From Armatimonadota bacterium (GTDB taxonomy: Bacteria > Armatimonadota > SYMT01), in contig JAWLHY010000016.1 of the NCBI GenBank assembly GCA_041690135.1, positions 64,001 through 128,000 on the forward strand: a stretch of DNA of 64,000 nt, read 5' to 3'. The position numbers and the translations under genes are program-made. Below, piece by piece: positions 1 to 56,419 of the stretch; positions within the stretch are counted from its first letter, which is position 1, and each line of letters begins with the position of its first letter. Under the pieces are notes generated by a model. That model had not been told where the DNA came from and did not search any database. It saw only the letters and a program-made list of their open reading frames with translations.

Positions 1-1014
1 GCCGGGCGCCACCCACCCCACCCGGTAGCCGGGGGTGAGCGTCTTGCTGAAGGAGGAGCAGAGCATCACCAGGCCTTTCCGGTCCCAGGCGCGAGCGACT
101 TTCGGCCGTGGGGTGCGATGGGAGAGGTCCCCGTAAATATCGTCTTCGATAAGAGGGATTTCACGCCTCGCCAGCATCTCGACCAGCTCGGCCCGCGCTT
201 CGTCCGGCATGCATGCCCCCGTGGGGTTGTTGAAGTTGGCGATCAGGCAGGCGCGGATCGGGTGGTGATCCAGGGCGTAACGGAGGGTGTCGAGGTTGAT
301 CCCGGTGCGCGGATGCGTGGGTAGTTCCAGGGCCTTCAGTCCGAGGGCCTCGATCGCCTGGAGGATCCCGTAGAAGGTGGGAGATTCGATCGCCACCGTG
401 TCCCCCGGACGACAAACGGCCTGGAGGCAGATTACCATGGCTTCCTGGCAGCCAAAGGTGGTGACGATCTCCTCCGGGCGGAGCTCGCAACCTGACGCAA
501 GTGCCCGGCGCGCGATCTGGACCCGCAGTTGTTTGCATCCGGGCGGAACGTCGTAAGACATGCCGCCGCCCTCCACATCGCGCGAGAGGTTGTGCAGCAG
601 GCGGTTCAGCTTCTCGCTCGGCAACAGGCTCATATTGGGCACCGTGGCCGCCAACTGCACGAGGCCGGCACAGGCGGTGTCCTTGAGCACCCGCAGGCAG
701 AGCTCTCCCATCGTGACCTGAGTCGGATCGAGATCCGGCTTCGAGCAAGCGGGCTCCGCGGGTCGCTCCGTTACCCGCGGTGCGACAAAGTAGCCGGACT
801 GCGGGCGAGCCTCAATCCAGCCGTCACTCTCCAGTAGGCGGTATGCCTCGAGCACAGTCGTGATGCTCACGGCCCGCTGCCGGCTCTGGTCCCGCACGGA
901 CGGGAGGCGGTCGCCGGGACGGAGCGTCCCCTCCTGGATCAATCGCAGGATCTGGTCGGCGATCTGCTGGTAGAGGGTTTCCGCGGAAGAGAGAGTAGTG
1001 AGTGGGCTCGCCAT
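1..1014 (-). CDS. MocR/GabR-family regulator (GntR wHTH + PLP aminotransferase-like domain), truncated by left window edge
   Basis: Manual translation from ATG 1014: MASPLTTLSSAETLYQQIADQILRLIQEGTLRPGDRLPSVR...VSITTVLEAYRLLESDGWIEARPQSGYFV. The downstream part has aminotransferase-like motifs (AIESPTFYG, NFNNPTG, IEDDIYG, SSFSKTLTPGYRVGW). Absent from the ORF track because the stop lies outside the window. Confidence 0.93.
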   Translation of the reverse strand, partial: MASPLTTLSSAETLYQQIADQILRLIQEGTLRPGDRLPSVRDQSRQRAVSITTVLEAYRLLESDGWIEARPQSGYFVAPRVTERPAEPACSKPDLDPTQVTMGELCLRVLKDTACAGLVQLAATVPNMSLLPSEKLNRLLHNLSRDVEGGGMSYDVPPGCKQLRVQIARRALASGCELRPEEIVTTFGCQEAMVICLQAVCRPGDTVAIESPTFYGILQAIEALGLKALELPTHPRTGINLDTLRYALDHHPIRACLIANFNNPTGACMPDEARAELVEMLARREIPLIEDDIYGDLSHRTPRPKVARAWDRKGLVMLCSSFSKTLTPGYRVGWVAPG

Positions 1015-1023
1015 TTCAGGAAA

Positions 1024-1109
1024 GTGTACCCTGCGAACTGTCCGGCGGAAAGGTACAGATCTCCGTTCCGCCTACCAGTACAGTGGTATGAAATGGGTTA
1101 CTGTGCTGG
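1024..1109. promoter_or_regulatory. Putative MocR operator repeats in divergent intergenic region
   Basis: GTACAG direct repeats at 1053 and 1078; inverted pair CCAGTACAGT (1075-1084) / ACTGTGCTGG (1100-1109), 9/10 match. This direct-plus-inverted layout is typical of MocR sites. Confidence 0.55.
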
Positions 1110-1167
1110 CAGAAATTGCCTGGGAGTGTGTCTACCCGGTTTTTCCAGCTTCCGTAAAATGGCAGCC

Positions 1168-1467
1168 ATGGAAACCTATCGCCAAACTCTACCGGCTCGA
1201 TCCACTCTCCGCCTACCGGCGGCGACGGTCGCTGTTTCTCTGAAATTGGCGCGCGGAGCCGTGCGTGCCGTTGCCGCCGCCCCGGGAAGCGTCATCCACT
1301 GCCTCCAGGGGGAGTGCTGGCTTACCCGGGACGGCGATCCGCGGGACTACCTGCTGCGGGCCGGAGACTCGCAGGTCGTCTCCGAGCGTGGCCGCTGGGT
1401 GATCCAGGCACTTACAGACTGTCTTGTGGAAGTGCGTGAGGAACCAGTATCCCGCCGCCGGGGATAA
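1168..1467 (+). CDS. DUF2917-like small cupin-type protein
   Basis: IHCLQGECWLTRDGDPRDYLLRAGDS motif; divergent from the MocR gene. TAAAAT 7 nt upstream of ATG 1168 suggests a leaderless start (alternative ATG 1159). Confidence 0.8.
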   Translation: METYRQTLPARSTLRLPAATVAVSLKLARGAVRAVAAAPGSVIHCLQGECWLTRDGDPRDYLLRAGDSQVVSERGRWVIQALTDCLVEVREEPVSRRRG

Positions 1468-1588
1468 GGTGAGTGTGAACCGGGGCAGGTCCTCCCCGTC
1501 CCAAGTGGGATAACACTGCCGAGTGCGGTGGCCGGGGCGACTGCATGTCCAGGTGCGTTAGCTCTGGCAGGTGCGGTAATCAGGGAAA

Positions 1589-52177: not shown

Positions 52178-54187
52178 TTATACGTTCCGGAGCCCAGATC
52201 CGTCTTTCCCCGAATTCTCCGCTCCTGGAACCTCCCGCACGGACTGGAGCCAAGCAGCCAGTTCGGTGTGGCCGGATTTTTCCGCCCAGGCCAACGGCGC
52301 GGCCCAGGGTTCCGCGTCCAGTTCATCAATGGGAGCGCCGCGTTCCACGAGGAGGCGCGCCATGCCCAGGCGGTTCCAGCGCGCCGCCCACCCCAAAGGC
52401 GTGCTCCGGAGGAGATCATCACGCACGTCCCACTGGGCACCGGCGTCCAGCAGCATGGTAGCGAACTCCGACCGCACCGCTTCGGTCATGACCGGCTGGC
52501 CCCAGGTGCTTCCCAGTGCCGCGACGCGGTGCAGCATCGTCGCACCGAACCGGCCCACCAGGTTGGGATCGCATCGTTCCAGGATCAGGCGGAAGCAAAG
52601 CGCGTAGGTGGACCGGTCCAACTCCTCGGCTCCGCGCGGAACCCAGTGTCCGGGGCCGTGGTTCCAGAGGCGGAGAGGCTGCTCCAGGATCTCGAACCAG
52701 CGGGTATCGTCTTTCGGCCAGTCGAGGCGCTCCAGGCATGCTGCCACGATTGCAGGATCTCCTCCACAGGCGGCAGCCCACAGGAGATCGCGAATGCCTT
52801 TCTCCCCGGTCTCCTTCAGGGAAGGAGATACCTCGTTGCCGCCCTCCAGGAAGCTGAGCCCCAGCGCTGTATGCCGGTATAGTCCGGCCGTGATGGCATC
52901 GACGCGTCCGCCGTAGCGTCGAAGCAGCACGATCATGCGCTTATCCCGCTGACCGTAGGCCTGGAACACGGCCGACCCGCTGGCATAGACCTGCGCGTTG
53001 GGATCGGCGCCCCGCTCCAGCAGCAACTCCGCCAGGTCAAGACGCCCGGAGCCGGCACAGTGCCACAGCGGCATCCCACTGCTGAGCTGCTTCTCCTCCA
53101 GTTCCAGGACCTGCGTCGCCTCGTTCGGATCCAGGCCCAAATCGAGCAGTGACTCCAGCACGTCGGAGCGGTCGTGCTGGACAGCCACGCTCAGAAGGCC
53201 TCCCCGGAAGACATCGATCTGCGTGAATGCTTCCGGCCTCTCTGCGTGGAGTGAGATCAGGGCCTCGCGTTCTCCCAGCGCCACGGCGGCCAACGGCGTA
53301 ATGCGGGCTCCCGCAGTCCTCATCCGGTTCGCCACCGGTTCGAAGCGCCGTAAAGACCCCGGCCTACGCCAGTGGACGGCCCGGACCGCGTGATCCAGGG
53401 GCGTGTGACCGCGAAAGTCGAGCGCGTCAACCTCCGCGCCGTGGTTTAACAGCCAGAAGACCACTTGCTCGCTAAGTGCGGCGGCGGCCAGGTGAAGTGC
53501 GGTGGCTCCCTCTTCGTTTACGGCAACCAGCAATGAGGGATCTTCGTTCAACAGCGCAATCGCTGATTCCGCGGCTTCCCCCCGCAACGCTTCCACAAAC
53601 GGGGTGAGATCAGGCACCGCGACCGACCTGGCCCCAGCCAGTGCTTCCCGGCGCCGCCTCTCCCCTTCGTCGATCGCCGCCACGACCTCCGTGTAGCCTC
53701 GTTCACGGGCCAGGGTGTAGGCACTGGTGGCGTCGCGGTGCGGGTAGATGCCCTGATGCGGGTCTGCTCCCGCTTCCATCAGGAGCCGCACCATCTCCAC
53801 GCAGCGGCCCAGAACCGCGAAGTGCAGGGCCCGGTGCTCGTTGTCGCCGGCCAGGTCCATGTGGACCAGCTCCGGCCGGCGCCGGAGCAAGGCGCGCACA
53901 CGGGATCGGTCACCCGCCTGCACCGCTTCCACCAGGCGGGCTACGGTGGCCCGGTCCAATTCTTCCTTCAGCCGGGGCCAGCTCTCGAAACCGTGGAAAC
54001 GCGCGATCACCAGCAGCGCATCCGAGAGTTGGAAGGTGGCGGGGTCGGCGTTGCGGTAATGGGCATCCACCAACGCCACAGCATCCGGATGCCCGGCTTT
54101 GAACGCCCGGCACAGGTCGCGGGCCTGGCGGCGGACTTGCTCCGCATCCCGGTGCCGTTCGTGCGGCGTGGGGGGCAGGTAACGCAT
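52178..54187 (-). CDS. Ankyrin-repeat protein with N-terminal 'ARxxGFxSW' helical module
   Basis: GAAAGGAG RBS; ANK repeats (RALHFAV, TALHLAA, TPLDHAV, TPLGWAA, LLERGADPN). Confidence 0.9.
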   Translation of the reverse strand: MRYLPPTPHERHRDAEQVRRQARDLCRAFKAGHPDAVALVDAHYRNADPATFQLSDALLVIARFHGFESWPRLKEELDRATVARLVEAVQAGDRSRVRALLRRRPELVHMDLAGDNEHRALHFAVLGRCVEMVRLLMEAGADPHQGIYPHRDATSAYTLARERGYTEVVAAIDEGERRRREALAGARSVAVPDLTPFVEALRGEAAESAIALLNEDPSLLVAVNEEGATALHLAAAALSEQVVFWLLNHGAEVDALDFRGHTPLDHAVRAVHWRRPGSLRRFEPVANRMRTAGARITPLAAVALGEREALISLHAERPEAFTQIDVFRGGLLSVAVQHDRSDVLESLLDLGLDPNEATQVLELEEKQLSSGMPLWHCAGSGRLDLAELLLERGADPNAQVYASGSAVFQAYGQRDKRMIVLLRRYGGRVDAITAGLYRHTALGLSFLEGGNEVSPSLKETGEKGIRDLLWAAACGGDPAIVAACLERLDWPKDDTRWFEILEQPLRLWNHGPGHWVPRGAEELDRSTYALCFRLILERCDPNLVGRFGATMLHRVAALGSTWGQPVMTEAVRSEFATMLLDAGAQWDVRDDLLRSTPLGWAARWNRLGMARLLVERGAPIDELDAEPWAAPLAWAEKSGHTELAAWLQSVREVPGAENSGKDGSGLRNV

Positions 54188-54325
54188 GGAGATCTCCTTT
54201 CACGAGCGGGCCCGAGGTCCGCTCGATCGGGCAGAAAGAAGATCGCCCTGGCTACAGGTAATGCGGCCGGAACAGGTGGACACGGTCCTTTCCGCGGACT
54301 CGGGGGCGCCCTGCCGCACCCTCTC
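54188..54325 (-). ncRNA. Candidate structured cis-regulatory leader RNA of the ankyrin gene
   Basis: Extended -10 TGCTATACC on the minus strand at ~54330-54338. Long-range stem 54294-54304 / 54211-54222 competes with local hairpins 54285-54299 and 54204-54224. Confidence 0.55.
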
Positions 54326-54405
54326 GCTTGGTATAGCATGAAGACGACCGGAGGGCACCACGCAAACCGGAGCAAAAAACTTCCTGATTCATCATGCGGA
54401 AGTGC

Positions 54406-54436
54406 TTGACCCTGACGTTACGTCACCCTGTAGCCT
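54406..54436 (+). promoter_or_regulatory. MerR-type promoter/operator
   Basis: TTGACC - 19 bp - TAGCCT with dyad TGACGT-T-ACGTCA (54413-54425) in the spacer. Confidence 0.85.
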
Positions 54437-54460
54437 GCACACGGAAAGGAGGAGGACACC

Positions 54461-55294
54461 CTGAACGGCCGTTTCTATCGCACGGGGCAATTTGCACGAC
54501 GGGCATCCGTCACGCTGCGCACGCTCCGCTACTACGACCGGGTCGGTCTCTTGAGCCCCCGGCAGCACACAGATGCGGGATATCGCCTCTATTCGGACGA
54601 GGACCTGGTCCGATTGCAGCAGATCCTGGGGCTCAAGTTCCTGGGTTTCACGCTGCAGGAGATCCGCGCCTGCCTGGAAGCTGGGCCGCAGCAGCTCTCC
54701 GTGGTGCTGGCGCAGCAGAAGGCGATGCTGGTGGACAAGCGCCGCCAGCTCGACGCAATCTTGCGGGCGATCGAGGAGACCGAGCAGCTTGTGCAGGCCG
54801 GCGAGTGGAATTGGGAGGCCATCGCGGGGGTGATCCAGATAACGCAAATGGAACAAAAGAGTGAATGGGTGAAGAAGTACTTCTCGGAAGAGCAACTCGC
54901 CAAGATGGAGGAGCTTAGCCAGAGCTCCTACTCGCCCGAAGCGCGTGAAACACTGGCTCAGCGCAGTGGGGAGTGGACCGAGGCCGACCAGCAGCGCGCC
55001 CAGGAACAGTGGGCGCATGTGGCGAACGAGGCCCGCCGACTGGCTGCTGCCGGAGCGGACCCCGGCGGACCCGAAGCTCAGGCAGTCGCGAAGTTCAAGT
55101 ACGAGCTTCTTTCGGCCTTCACACAGGGGGATCTCCAGGTGGAAGCCGGCCTGAACCGATTCTGGGAACAGTTCCAGGCATTGCCGAAGGACGAGCAACC
55201 GTTCGATAACTCTCCCTTCGACGCCGGAGAGGAGGGCAATGCCCTGCTCAACCGCGCTATGGAGATCTACCGAGAGCGGAGTGCCGGTCCCTGA
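54461..55294 (+). CDS. MerR-family regulator with TipAS-like C-terminal domain (CTG start)
   Basis: FYRTGQFARRASVTLRTLRYYDRVGLLSP...GYRLYS...LGFTLQEI; DPGGPEAQAVA TipAS-like motif; strong AGGAGGAGG RBS before CTG. Confidence 0.9.
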   Translation: MNGRFYRTGQFARRASVTLRTLRYYDRVGLLSPRQHTDAGYRLYSDEDLVRLQQILGLKFLGFTLQEIRACLEAGPQQLSVVLAQQKAMLVDKRRQLDAILRAIEETEQLVQAGEWNWEAIAGVIQITQMEQKSEWVKKYFSEEQLAKMEELSQSSYSPEARETLAQRSGEWTEADQQRAQEQWAHVANEARRLAAAGADPGGPEAQAVAKFKYELLSAFTQGDLQVEAGLNRFWEQFQALPKDEQPFDNSPFDAGEEGNALLNRAMEIYRERSAGP

Positions 55295-55391: not shown

Positions 55392-55645
55392 GGCCGTTGG
55401 GGCTACTGCACCTTCTCACAGGAAAGATCTGTAGACCGAGTTGCTGAGTGGCCCGGTGGCATGTTAAGTAAACACTTAGAACCGTAGTTGTAGTTCAGAA
55501 TCCTTCACCGGCTAACCGGTCTCCCTTCGACCTATGGGGGCGGAAGCAAGAGACCGGTATCTTATCTAACGCCGGCAGGTAACGAAGCAGGTCCATTCCA
55601 TCGCCTCCGACGGTGCAGGCGGAGGCCCTCACCGAGGGAAAGACC

Positions 55646-56419
55646 ATGAGATCGCGTCGGTCGGGGTTTACTTTGATCGAGCTACTGGTGGTTATCGCCA
55701 TCATAGCCATTCTGGCGGCAATCCTGTTCCCTGTGTTTGCACAGGCGCGCGAAAAGGCCCGGTCCGCCGCCTGCTTGAGTAATGTCAAGCAGCTCGCCAG
55801 CGCTGTCTTGATGTACACTCAGGACTACGATGAATTGCTGCCTCACCATGCTGCGGACGTTCAGGACTTCCTGAACCCGGCGGTTGCCCCAACCTGGCAG
55901 CGGGGGACCCTTCCCTATATCAAGAACGATAAGGTGTTCTTCTGTCCTTCCAGCCCTCAGGCTCCCACGCAACCGGAGAACGCCACCAATCGCTTGTGGC
56001 CCCGGAGTTCGTACCAGGGGAACTGCGTGGTCATCTCCCGGACGGGAACCGCGCTGGCCCGAATCCCCAATCCGGCGGACATCCTGTTTGCGCAGGAGAA
56101 TTTCTTCAAGTTTTTCAACGCGTATAATCGCCCCACGCAGAGCGGCAGCAACTTCTACTACTGGCACCTGATCGACTGTCGCCCGCAGTATCCCGGGCTC
56201 CCGATGACCGGTGGTCCGTGCGGCGAACAGTACAACAGCCGCCACTTCAGCGGCGGCAATCTCGTCTTTGTCGACGGGCACGCCAAGTACTTCCAGGTGG
56301 CGCGCATGAGAAGCGGTATGTTCGGGCTATTGCCCGACGAACCTTACAACCCGAACGACCCAACGCAGGGAACCTGCAGCCCCGGTTGTAGCTCGAAAGC
56401 TTATACGGCCGCGTTTTAG
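55646..56419 (+). CDS. Prepilin-type N-methylation / DUF1559 / H-X9-DG protein
   Basis: [56 protein letters not shown]. Confidence 0.93.

Follow-up and report, generated by a model that had tools for sequence, protein, structure and literature searches.

Bacterial leader RNAs that govern access to the Shine-Dalgarno (SD) sequence of the gene downstream include several described systems with which the element reported here can be compared. The SAM-II/SAM-V, preQ1 and guanidine-III riboswitches are small (~35–60 nucleotides (nt)), and the SD sequence is part of their aptamer pseudoknot. The yjdF motif is found almost only before yjdF genes. Orphan or single-gene riboswitch candidates are exemplified by this motif (PMC12641257), and autoregulatory ribosomal-protein leaders by the rpsF leader, which is bound by S6:S18 (PMC3895269). 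Here we describe a leader RNA upstream of an ankyrin-repeat gene of an Armatimonadota bacterium (assembly GCA_041690135.1, contig JAWLHY010000016.1, positions 64,001 to 128,000; this whole stretch of 64,000 nt is called the window). Comparison with homologues showed that the RNA has a conserved fold with two pseudoknots, in which the SD sequence is buried, and that its coupling to the small N-terminal module of the protein encoded downstream is near-obligate. An SD-masking cis-regulatory leader is a known kind of element; the fold and the RNA-module pairing appear to be new.

Like the ribosomal-protein leaders, this RNA is a structured 5' untranslated region (UTR) that is tied to one protein family in several phyla and is predicted to contact or mask the translation start, and by analogy with them the product may bind its own leader. 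It differs from them in being larger and more conserved and in having two pseudoknots; moreover, the protein is no known RNA binder, its module has neither a Pfam family nor a Foldseek match in the PDB, and there is no known second RNA target for the leader to mimic. Like candidates of the yjdF type, it stands before what is essentially a single gene family, has a complex aptamer-like fold that is conserved and putatively controls translation, and the genes give no obvious clue to a ligand. However, neither its sequence nor its structure matches yjdF by Rfam search, and the unit with which it is associated is a module fused to many C-terminal domains rather than a whole protein family. An H-type pseudoknot and probable translational control via access to the SD sequence are shared with SAM-II/SAM-V, preQ1 and guanidine-III, whereas the anti-SD helix here is a separate one of 10–14 base pairs (bp), joined to the 5' pseudoknot domain only by a kissing-type loop interaction, and no Rfam match to these classes was found.

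The RNA motif was delimited by its covariance-model match, position p of the RNA corresponding to position 54323 - p of the window. The motif, its predicted helices, the promoter-like box before it and the gene that follows it are located in the window as follows.

54330..54338, minus strand: extended -10-like box TGCTATACC, with the hexamer TATACC at 54335-54330; the box ends 7 nt before the motif
54185..54322, minus strand: whole RNA motif, 138 nt through the AUG
54304..54321, minus strand: S1, the 5'-terminal hairpin, GGGUGC (54321-54316) with GCGCCC (54309-54304), the loop holding CAGG
54310..54313, minus strand: 5' strand of S2, CAGG, in the S1 loop, pairing with CCUG to form pseudoknot 1 (H-type)
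54294..54299, minus strand: 5' strand of pseudoknot 2, GUCCGC, pairing with GCGGAC (54222-54217) in the P3 loop
54278..54293, minus strand: joiner GGAAA (54293-54289) and hairpin P1 (GGAC-CGU-GUCC, 54288-54278)
54273..54276, minus strand: 3' strand of S2, CCUG, directly after P1
54245..54272, minus strand: variable linker, ~30 nt, unconserved in sequence and length, the consensus being all 'n'
54234..54244, minus strand: anti-SD strand GAUCUUCUUUC, pairing with 54201-54191
54210..54232, minus strand: hairpin P3, GCCCGA (54232-54227) with UCGGGC (54215-54210), the loop carrying GCGGAC (54222-54217)
54191..54201, minus strand: SD strand GAAAGGAGAUC, with the SD core GGAG at 54197-54194, paired with the anti-SD strand
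52178..54187, minus strand: putatively regulated gene (ATG at 54187-54185), an open reading frame (ORF) of 669 amino acids (aa) with the N-terminal module followed by ankyrin repeats
roughly 53933-54187, minus strand: four-helix module, residues ~1-85 by profile match, at the N-terminal start of the 669-aa ankyrin protein

In a DNA search of the source genome the leader was found once more, on another contig, where it precedes a paralogous ankyrin gene (G000 contig C4, 357015-357148, which is 1501-1634 of L006; minus strand). The two leaders are 71% identical over 122 nt and the two proteins 29% identical, and both genes of the source genome that encode the module have the leader RNA. A third copy was found by DNA search in one genome of the same family; the second match of that search (L005) proved to be a chance coding match and was discarded. 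A covariance model built from these three copies (the window, the in-genome paralogue and the one relative; model R1) gave seven full-length matches in six of the eight genomes of the class. Model R2, built from seven copies of the class, gave 45 matches in 33 of the 151 sampled genomes of the phylum, and a targeted unfiltered search found the RNA in two further phylum genomes. The copy in the window scored 140.8 bits against R1 and 118.4 bits against R2 (E = 2.4e-22 in a whole-genome search).

The RNA was not confined to this phylum. A search with the protein module (alignment A5) returned 425 relatives, the best 80 of which were used for a check of the leaders, and R2 placed the RNA directly upstream of the gene in 78 of these 80 loci, from about ten phyla; one of the two loci without it has only 89 nt of upstream sequence. 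We take the 80 loci to span Actinomycetota, Acidobacteriota, Gemmatimonadota, Verrucomicrobiota, Chloroflexota, Latescibacterota, Armatimonadota, Pseudomonadota and others. A strict 25-nt pattern of the RNA identified at least 120 further loci, including loci of cultured Streptomyces, Nonomuraea, Amycolatopsis, Rugosimonospora and Actinopolymorpha, and also of Planctomycetota. Homologous leaders with compensatory base changes were found in hundreds of genomes in all, these counts being of sequences and not of independent events, as many aligned rows are related metagenome-assembled genomes (MAGs).

Compensatory changes were counted in alignment A4 (seven rows, from the class), alignment A10 (99 distinct rows, from many phyla) and alignment A11 (100 copies, of which the RNA-pattern search supplied 80 and the phylum 20). 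Because an alignment fitted to a model leans towards the helices of that model, A11 was aligned with a third model (R3), which includes S1 and excludes both pseudoknots, and only S2 and the second pseudoknot were scored in it. In A4, 99% of helix cells were paired, as against 91.5% after shuffling and 41–52% when the strands were slid, and 10 of 28 pairs had changed on both sides (4.3 ± 1.4 after shuffling). The corresponding values were 93.4% (shuffled 84.7%, slid 38–45%) and 30 of 36 pairs (15.4 ± 1.7) in A10, and 95.5% (shuffled 88.6%, slid 34–44%) and 9 of 10 pairs (2.5 ± 0.6) in A11. None of 500 shuffles reached the observed number of both-side changes in any of the three alignments. The proposal of an earlier note, made from the letters of the window, that the ankyrin gene has a structured 5' leader was borne out by this conservation and covariation across homologues, in particular by the 30 of 36 pairs of A10.

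The changes were distributed over both domains of the RNA. In A10 five of the six pairs of S1, which lies outside R2, had changed on both sides; the inner pairs formed in 97, 95 and 92 of the 99 rows and the helix as a whole in 76.9% of cells, and variants recognised by eye included GGCGU/ACGCC, GGCAU/AUGCC, GCUU/AAGC and UGCCG/CGGCA. S2 forms across copies between 4–6 nt of the S1 loop (xAGG) and CCUx just 3' of P1. All four of its pairs covaried, with 89.1% of cells paired on the alignment from R3, a model without S2; the variants were CAGG:CCUG (50), AAGG:CCUU (28), GAGG:CCUC (10) and GGGG:CCCC (6), and more rarely CAGA:UCUG (2), UCGG:CCGA (2) and AAGU:ACUU (1). The second pseudoknot, which is part of no model, was paired in 99.8% of cells and had changed on both sides at four of six pairs in A10 and five of six in A11. 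While GUCCGC:GCGGAC accounted for 158 of 186 rows, fully compensated forms among the same rows were GUCUGC:GCAGAC (6), AUCCGC:GCGGAU (4), GUCCGU:ACGGAC (2), GCCCGC:GCGGGC (2), GCCUGC:GCAGGC (1) and GCUCGC:GCGAGC (1).

Of the nested helices, P1 (4 bp) was 99.7% paired, with three of four pairs covarying and one of them found as GC in 75 rows and AU in 22, and P3 (consensus GCCYG...CRGGC) was 99.2% paired, one of its pairs being found as UA (57), CG (34), UG (6) or GC (1). Ten of the 11 counted anti-SD:SD pairs had changed on both sides, ~93–96% of cells being paired; examples are CUUUAUGC:GCAUGGAG and ACCUUUC:GAAAGGU. In the conserved order of elements, a single strand that is itself conserved leads up to GUCCGC at its end, the joiner has the consensus GCGGRnAGG, the anti-SD core CUUCUUUC with its flanks precedes P3, ~8 unpaired nt lie between P3 and the SD strand, and the conserved SD strand GAAAGGAGG is followed by AUG, the anti-SD:SD helix ending within a few nt of it. 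Among 100 copies, 26 positions were at least 97% identical and 21 more were 90–97% identical; the copies were 115–146 nt long (median, 128 nt). The calculated energy of the anti-SD:SD helix with P3 was -21.6 kcal/mol in the window, and the mean energy of the anti-SD:SD duplex across copies was -12.3 kcal/mol.

A subclass of the RNA, 157–175 nt long, has ~45 extra nt between P3 and the SD strand, a part that the models misalign (loci L163, L206, L190, L030, L177, L180, L176, L170, L181 and L205). The insertion resembles an additional hairpin.

Folding of the window leader as a single sequence was uninformative. A 159-nt stretch folded at -62.1 kcal/mol and its shuffles at -59.9 ± 4.1 kcal/mol (z = -0.52), with 57 of 200 shuffles folding as well. 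The nested minimum-free-energy structure of the window (-57 kcal/mol) is unlike the consensus fold (-37.5 kcal/mol, plus about -13 kcal/mol for the two pseudoknot duplexes).

The position of the RNA was examined with respect to genes. In the phylum, 44 of the 45 matches were directly followed by a gene with the module, the exception being the weakest, a partial match. The same was true of 114 of the 120 pattern sites; five of the others run off the sequence, and one is a chance pattern without a model match. The 33 RNA-positive genomes were all within the 37 module-positive ones, 114 of the 151 genomes having neither; of the four genomes that were module-positive and initially RNA-negative, the RNA was recovered in two by the unfiltered targeted searches. 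The earlier note had suggested that similar leaders stand before homologous genes, which agrees with the RNA found before 78 of the 80 genes chosen by their N-terminal module, and these figures (44 of 45, 78 of 80 and 114 of 120) confirmed that the leader follows this module and not the ankyrin part of the protein.

The proteins encoded downstream had Ank domains in 63 of 75 cases, and LRR, TPR, GNAT, AHSA1 and Clp_N domains in others; a wider search of the C-terminal parts also found ClpS, FHA-GGDEF and FliG-type domains. The leucine-rich repeats of module proteins matched Pfam models named after F-box/LRR proteins. The module itself was nearly always N-terminal and often in two to three tandem copies, and its family comprises 10,854 clusters at 50% identity (E <= 1e-3), or 6,166 at E <= 1e-10. 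No conserved neighbour gene was found among 109 neighbouring ORFs, which gave only two clusters of two. As the neighbouring genes are not conserved, promoter, leader and gene can be regarded as a stand-alone cassette.

One of the leader genes (L011 of G007, 895-1503, minus strand) encodes a protein of 203 aa, which consists of the module and a short non-ankyrin C-terminal part; for this part no Pfam, NCBIfam or PADLOC match was found.

In 86 of 99 copies the motif was preceded by a TANNNT hexamer that ended 3–8 nt before it, and many of the 99 had TTGAC ~17 nt upstream of this -10 box. With such a box just upstream, the motif would begin at the predicted transcription start and make up the whole 5' UTR; in the window, transcription is inferred to start at ~54325–54322. 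The extended -10 element of the earlier note shares its position with the box of these homologues. Its hexamer ends in C, however, and a scan of the window leader for consensus promoters and terminators called none, so that the homologues support the box of the window by position only.

The same note had described the leader as bistable. All of the sequence features it listed are present on the minus strand, as follows.

54304-54294, minus strand: CCCGAGTCCGC, 5' arm of an 11-bp long-range pairing
54222-54211, minus strand: GCGGACCTCGGG, 3' arm of this pairing, 11 bp with one bulged C
54299-54285, minus strand: hairpin GTCC-GCGGAAA-GGAC
54224-54219 with 54209-54204, minus strand: GAGCGG with CCGCTC
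54201-54194, minus strand: GAAAGGAG, the ribosome-binding site

Comparison with homologues divided these features. The 6-bp core of the long-range pairing, GUCCGC:GCGGAC, is the covarying second pseudoknot, while its extension, CCCGAG:CUCGGG, is not conserved, with 67% and 20% of cells pairing and no pair changed on both sides; CUCGGG belongs to the conserved hairpin P3, as its 3' arm. A second hairpin, GAGCGG/CCGCUC, was found to be specific to the window, with 35% of cells paired and little or no compensation. A third hairpin, GGGC/GCCC, would pair the variable linker with the 5' arm of P3 and was rejected from the alignments by eye, without a count. The alternative GUCC:GGAC hairpin is able to form in 96% of cells; both of its strands are conserved for other pairings, and no pair had changed on both sides. 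It is possible that the leader is bistable. The anti-SD CUUCUUUC:SD helix, which is probably the main functional helix, was absent from that account, as were S1, S2 and P1.

Searches for a described counterpart of the RNA were negative. With Rfam 15 (4227 models), positions 53800–54700 of the window gave, at E <= 10, only a 20-nt sX6 fragment within coding sequence, at 12.5 bits where the gathering score is 40, and ten homologous loci of other phyla gave, at E <= 1, only a chance match to mir-679. This is in line with the statement of the earlier note that the leader fits no recognised riboswitch class. In the open-access literature, supplementary motif lists being outside the scope of the search and another name being possible, no paper was found in which an RNA of this kind is connected with ankyrin genes or with these phyla. 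The passages of the RNA-discovery papers PMC11109978 and PMC8632094 that the searched terms reach do not mention the motif. The RNA class is apparently undescribed.

The 669-aa protein is an ankyrin-repeat protein by Pfam, the only families above the gathering score being those of Ank (Ank_2, 1.7e-31, 109 bits against a cut-off of 27.3; Ank, 88.8 bits). NCBIfam models of a Legionella Ank effector and of MzaA also matched and were dismissed as generic repeat matches (58 bits against a cut-off of 600), and NCBIfam and PADLOC scans of module proteins gave nothing beyond generic ankyrin matches. The start of this protein is the N-terminal module that the earlier note had quoted. Residues 1-90 were predicted by AlphaFold2, from an alignment of 60 sequences, to form four helices (mean predicted local distance difference test score (pLDDT), 87.2). 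The module has a mean net charge of +3.65 per 85 aa, and the rest of the protein is acidic.

No family was assigned to the module. In a Pfam search with seven modules at E <= 10, only weak matches to DUF6381, Glyoxalase_8, DUF732, LigB, ABATE and PLDc_3 were listed, with no F-box family among them; Glyoxalase_8 matched 3 of the 75 downstream proteins, the best at E = 2e-4. Foldseek found no match in the PDB at E <= 0.001, and a search of ESM Atlas gave only unnamed clusters. PDB sequence profiles gave weak matches, at E = 0.06 to the first helix of PhyR-type sigma-like domains and at E = 0.005 to 9s82 'JUBO2'; a literature search on 'JUBO2' returned nothing relevant. The module of L064 faintly resembles the N-terminus of NCBIfam PRK05973 'DNA helicase' (E = 5e-4), and the faint resemblances of the module fall in residues ~10-45 and ~50-70. 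The AREyGFxSW half of the module may be a wider mini-motif.

In eukaryotic adaptors an F-box or SOCS-box is combined with LRR, ankyrin or WD40 repeats. The proteins described here share with them, as an analogy only and at the level of protein, a constant small helical N-terminal module with interchangeable interaction repeats. The module differs from the F-box in being ~85 aa long with four helices and in lacking an F-box family among the listed Pfam matches, and we know of no RNA leader for F-box genes.

The reading that we favour, at a little less than even chances, is a conserved class of SD-masking leaders that is autoregulated by the encoded module. A sigma-70-type promoter would start transcription at the first stem, S1. 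The 5' domain is an H-type pseudoknot (S1 and S2) in which the small hairpin P1 is embedded, the 3' domain is a long anti-SD:SD helix that reaches almost to the AUG and encloses P3, and the 6-bp loop-to-strand pseudoknot GUCCGC:GCGGAC docks the two domains onto each other. Since the ribosome-binding site is buried in the conserved fold, the RNA may hold translation initiation off, and we consider it likely that the RNA controls translation. The small basic N-terminal module would then bind the folded leader and stabilise the closed state, resulting in negative autoregulation like that of the ribosomal-protein leaders. That the effector is the gene's own product, the module binding the leader, is a tentative proposal, to which we would give somewhat less than an even chance. 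Autoregulation is favoured because the RNA goes with the module whatever the C-terminal domain, because no other gene class is controlled, and because the unit is self-contained. The variety of C-terminal domains and the lack of a conserved neighbour gene are also in keeping with it, and the net positive charge of the module, in a protein that is otherwise acidic, is an indirect hint of RNA binding. As in autoregulatory leaders, the RNA lies in the 5' UTR and co-occurs with the encoded module, and since the self-contained unit is found in about ten phyla without partner genes, the effector should be either self-encoded or universal.

A possible open state is one in which the anti-SD strand pairs with the purine-rich GGRAAGG of the 5' domain, which would exclude P1 and the pseudoknot and free the SD sequence. 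The GGRAAGG joiner with the 5' arm of P1 was the best upstream partner of the anti-SD strand in ~65–70% of copies (mean, -8.1 kcal/mol, as against -12.3 kcal/mol for anti-SD:SD). A broader suggestion, which is speculative and well short of an even chance, is that leader and module are the halves of one portable switch; the module would be a new RNA-binding domain that reads its own leader, for autoregulation or as a working ribonucleoprotein, and that has been fused to many target-binding domains (ankyrin, LRR, TPR, Clp_N, ClpS and others) in about ten phyla.

Several observations weigh against autoregulation by the module. An intricate fold with ~47 nt that are near-invariant across phyla would sooner be expected of a metabolite aptamer than of a leader that binds a protein, and the anti-SD:SD helix seems so stable that repression by a protein would be needless, an activating effector fitting equally well. 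No relative of the module was detectable among known RNA-binding domains in Pfam, by Foldseek against the PDB or with PDB profiles. The candidate open state showed no covariation and, as judged by eye, is lost in variants with a C-containing joiner. There are also module genes without the RNA, namely two in G117 (L132 and L133), one in G006 (contig C155, L136) and L066; these have a divergent N-terminus without the usual LPxxPxLE start and may be a divergent subfamily from which the RNA was lost or in which it was never present. Finally, many of the sequences come from related MAGs, and the counts are accordingly not independent.

The main rival reading is a riboswitch, in which the double-pseudoknot 5' domain docked on P3 would be an aptamer for a universal small molecule or ion that sets anti-SD closure. 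The RNA does have an aptamer-like, complex fold with two covarying pseudoknots and with near-invariant nt that are largely unpaired, and it has a classical expression platform, SD sequestration by the covarying anti-SD:SD helix, no terminator-like site having been called; the motif begins at the inferred transcription start, the unit works in so many phyla that its effector should be universal or self-encoded, and the alternative partner of the anti-SD strand is positionally consistent in ~65–70% of sequences. However, validated riboswitch classes usually control several ligand-related gene families. The RNA described here is tied to one protein module, controls neither transporter nor enzyme genes and has no conserved neighbour gene, and the proteins it would regulate consist mostly of protein-interaction repeats, which point to no ligand. 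A riboswitch is considered less likely than not, and so is its corollary that the module proteins act in the biology of the ligand. The near-exclusive pairing of RNA and module could alternatively reflect a stable ribonucleoprotein, in which the leader, possibly cleaved from the mRNA, is the partner of the module, instead of being a regulator or in addition to it; the constant pair of RNA and module would form the working core, and the variable repeats would aim the complex at targets. This would fit the co-inheritance of RNA and module almost without exception while C-terminal domains are swapped, the frequent tandem arrangement of two to three modules, and conservation well beyond the needs of SD masking. 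The SD sequence and the AUG lie within the conserved fold, though, which points to translation control, and neither a terminator nor a processing signal was found between RNA and gene; we regard a ribonucleoprotein of this kind as improbable.

The effector might also be another universal component or condition (the ribosome or 30S subunit, a tRNA, an RNase, an RNA helicase or temperature), or the RNA might be a constitutive element that keeps translation low and protects the 5' end. A 5'-terminal stem right at the inferred transcription start, very stable SD masking and function across phyla without conserved partner genes are compatible with either, but the exclusive pairing with the module would be left unexplained, as would the two pseudoknots and the many conserved unpaired bases, and there seems little likelihood of such an explanation. 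It was also considered that the conservation might act at the level of DNA, as promoter and operator sites bound by a transcription factor (the divergent MerR/TipAS regulator, for example), with no RNA structure involved, since GTCCGC/GCGGAC is an inverted repeat and the window has a divergent MerR-type gene at a distance of ~270 bp. In seven helices Watson-Crick and G-U pairing is maintained by compensatory changes, the motif sits downstream of the -10 box, and the MerR neighbour is absent at the paralogue and in G002 and was not seen again in the set of 109 neighbouring ORFs. The covariation includes G-U pairs, which are meaningful at the level of RNA only, and it practically excludes an operator in the DNA. 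Autoregulation by the encoded module is retained as the preferred, though tentative, reading.

Other features of these loci were recorded. The MerR/TipAS-type regulator gene that is divergent from the leader in the window (54461-55294, plus strand) has no ATG, GTG or TTG early enough to include the helix-turn-helix (HTH), since the first listed start, TTG at 54551, would leave the HTH out. Its frame opens at CTG 54461, 5 nt past GGAGGAGG (54448-54455), and the frame from 54455 matched Pfam MerR_1 (6.1e-19) and TipAS (1.7e-07). The region 54406-54463 (plus strand) resembles a MerR-style promoter, with TTGACC at 54406-54411, a 19-nt spacer containing the dyad TGACGTTACGTCA, and TAGCCT at 54431-54436. 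Another ORF of the window (55613-56419, plus strand) has a prepilin-type N-terminal methylation motif and presumably resembles the DUF1559-type proteins, which we believe to be abundant in Planctomycetota, Verrucomicrobiota and Armatimonadota. At the paralogous ankyrin gene on contig C4, the N-terminal module is tandemly duplicated, and a DNA methyltransferase-like ORF lies divergently upstream. A plasmid comparison gave neither DNA nor protein matches.

To our knowledge, few large structured RNA classes of wide distribution now remain to be described, and members of this one occur in Streptomyces and as far afield as Acidobacteriota, Planctomycetota and Proteobacteria. It is unusual for an RNA to be coupled almost exclusively to one uncharacterised protein module, as here, and this raises the questions of what role this very common module has and which signal opens the closed ribosome-binding site. 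Experiments are feasible in tractable cultured hosts that have the RNA, such as Streptomyces, Amycolatopsis and Cellulomonas. An answer as to the effector, whether it is the gene's own protein or a universal ligand, would add either a riboswitch class or a protein-RNA recognition pair, and would suggest a function for the thousands of genes that at present go by 'ankyrin repeat protein' or 'hypothetical'.

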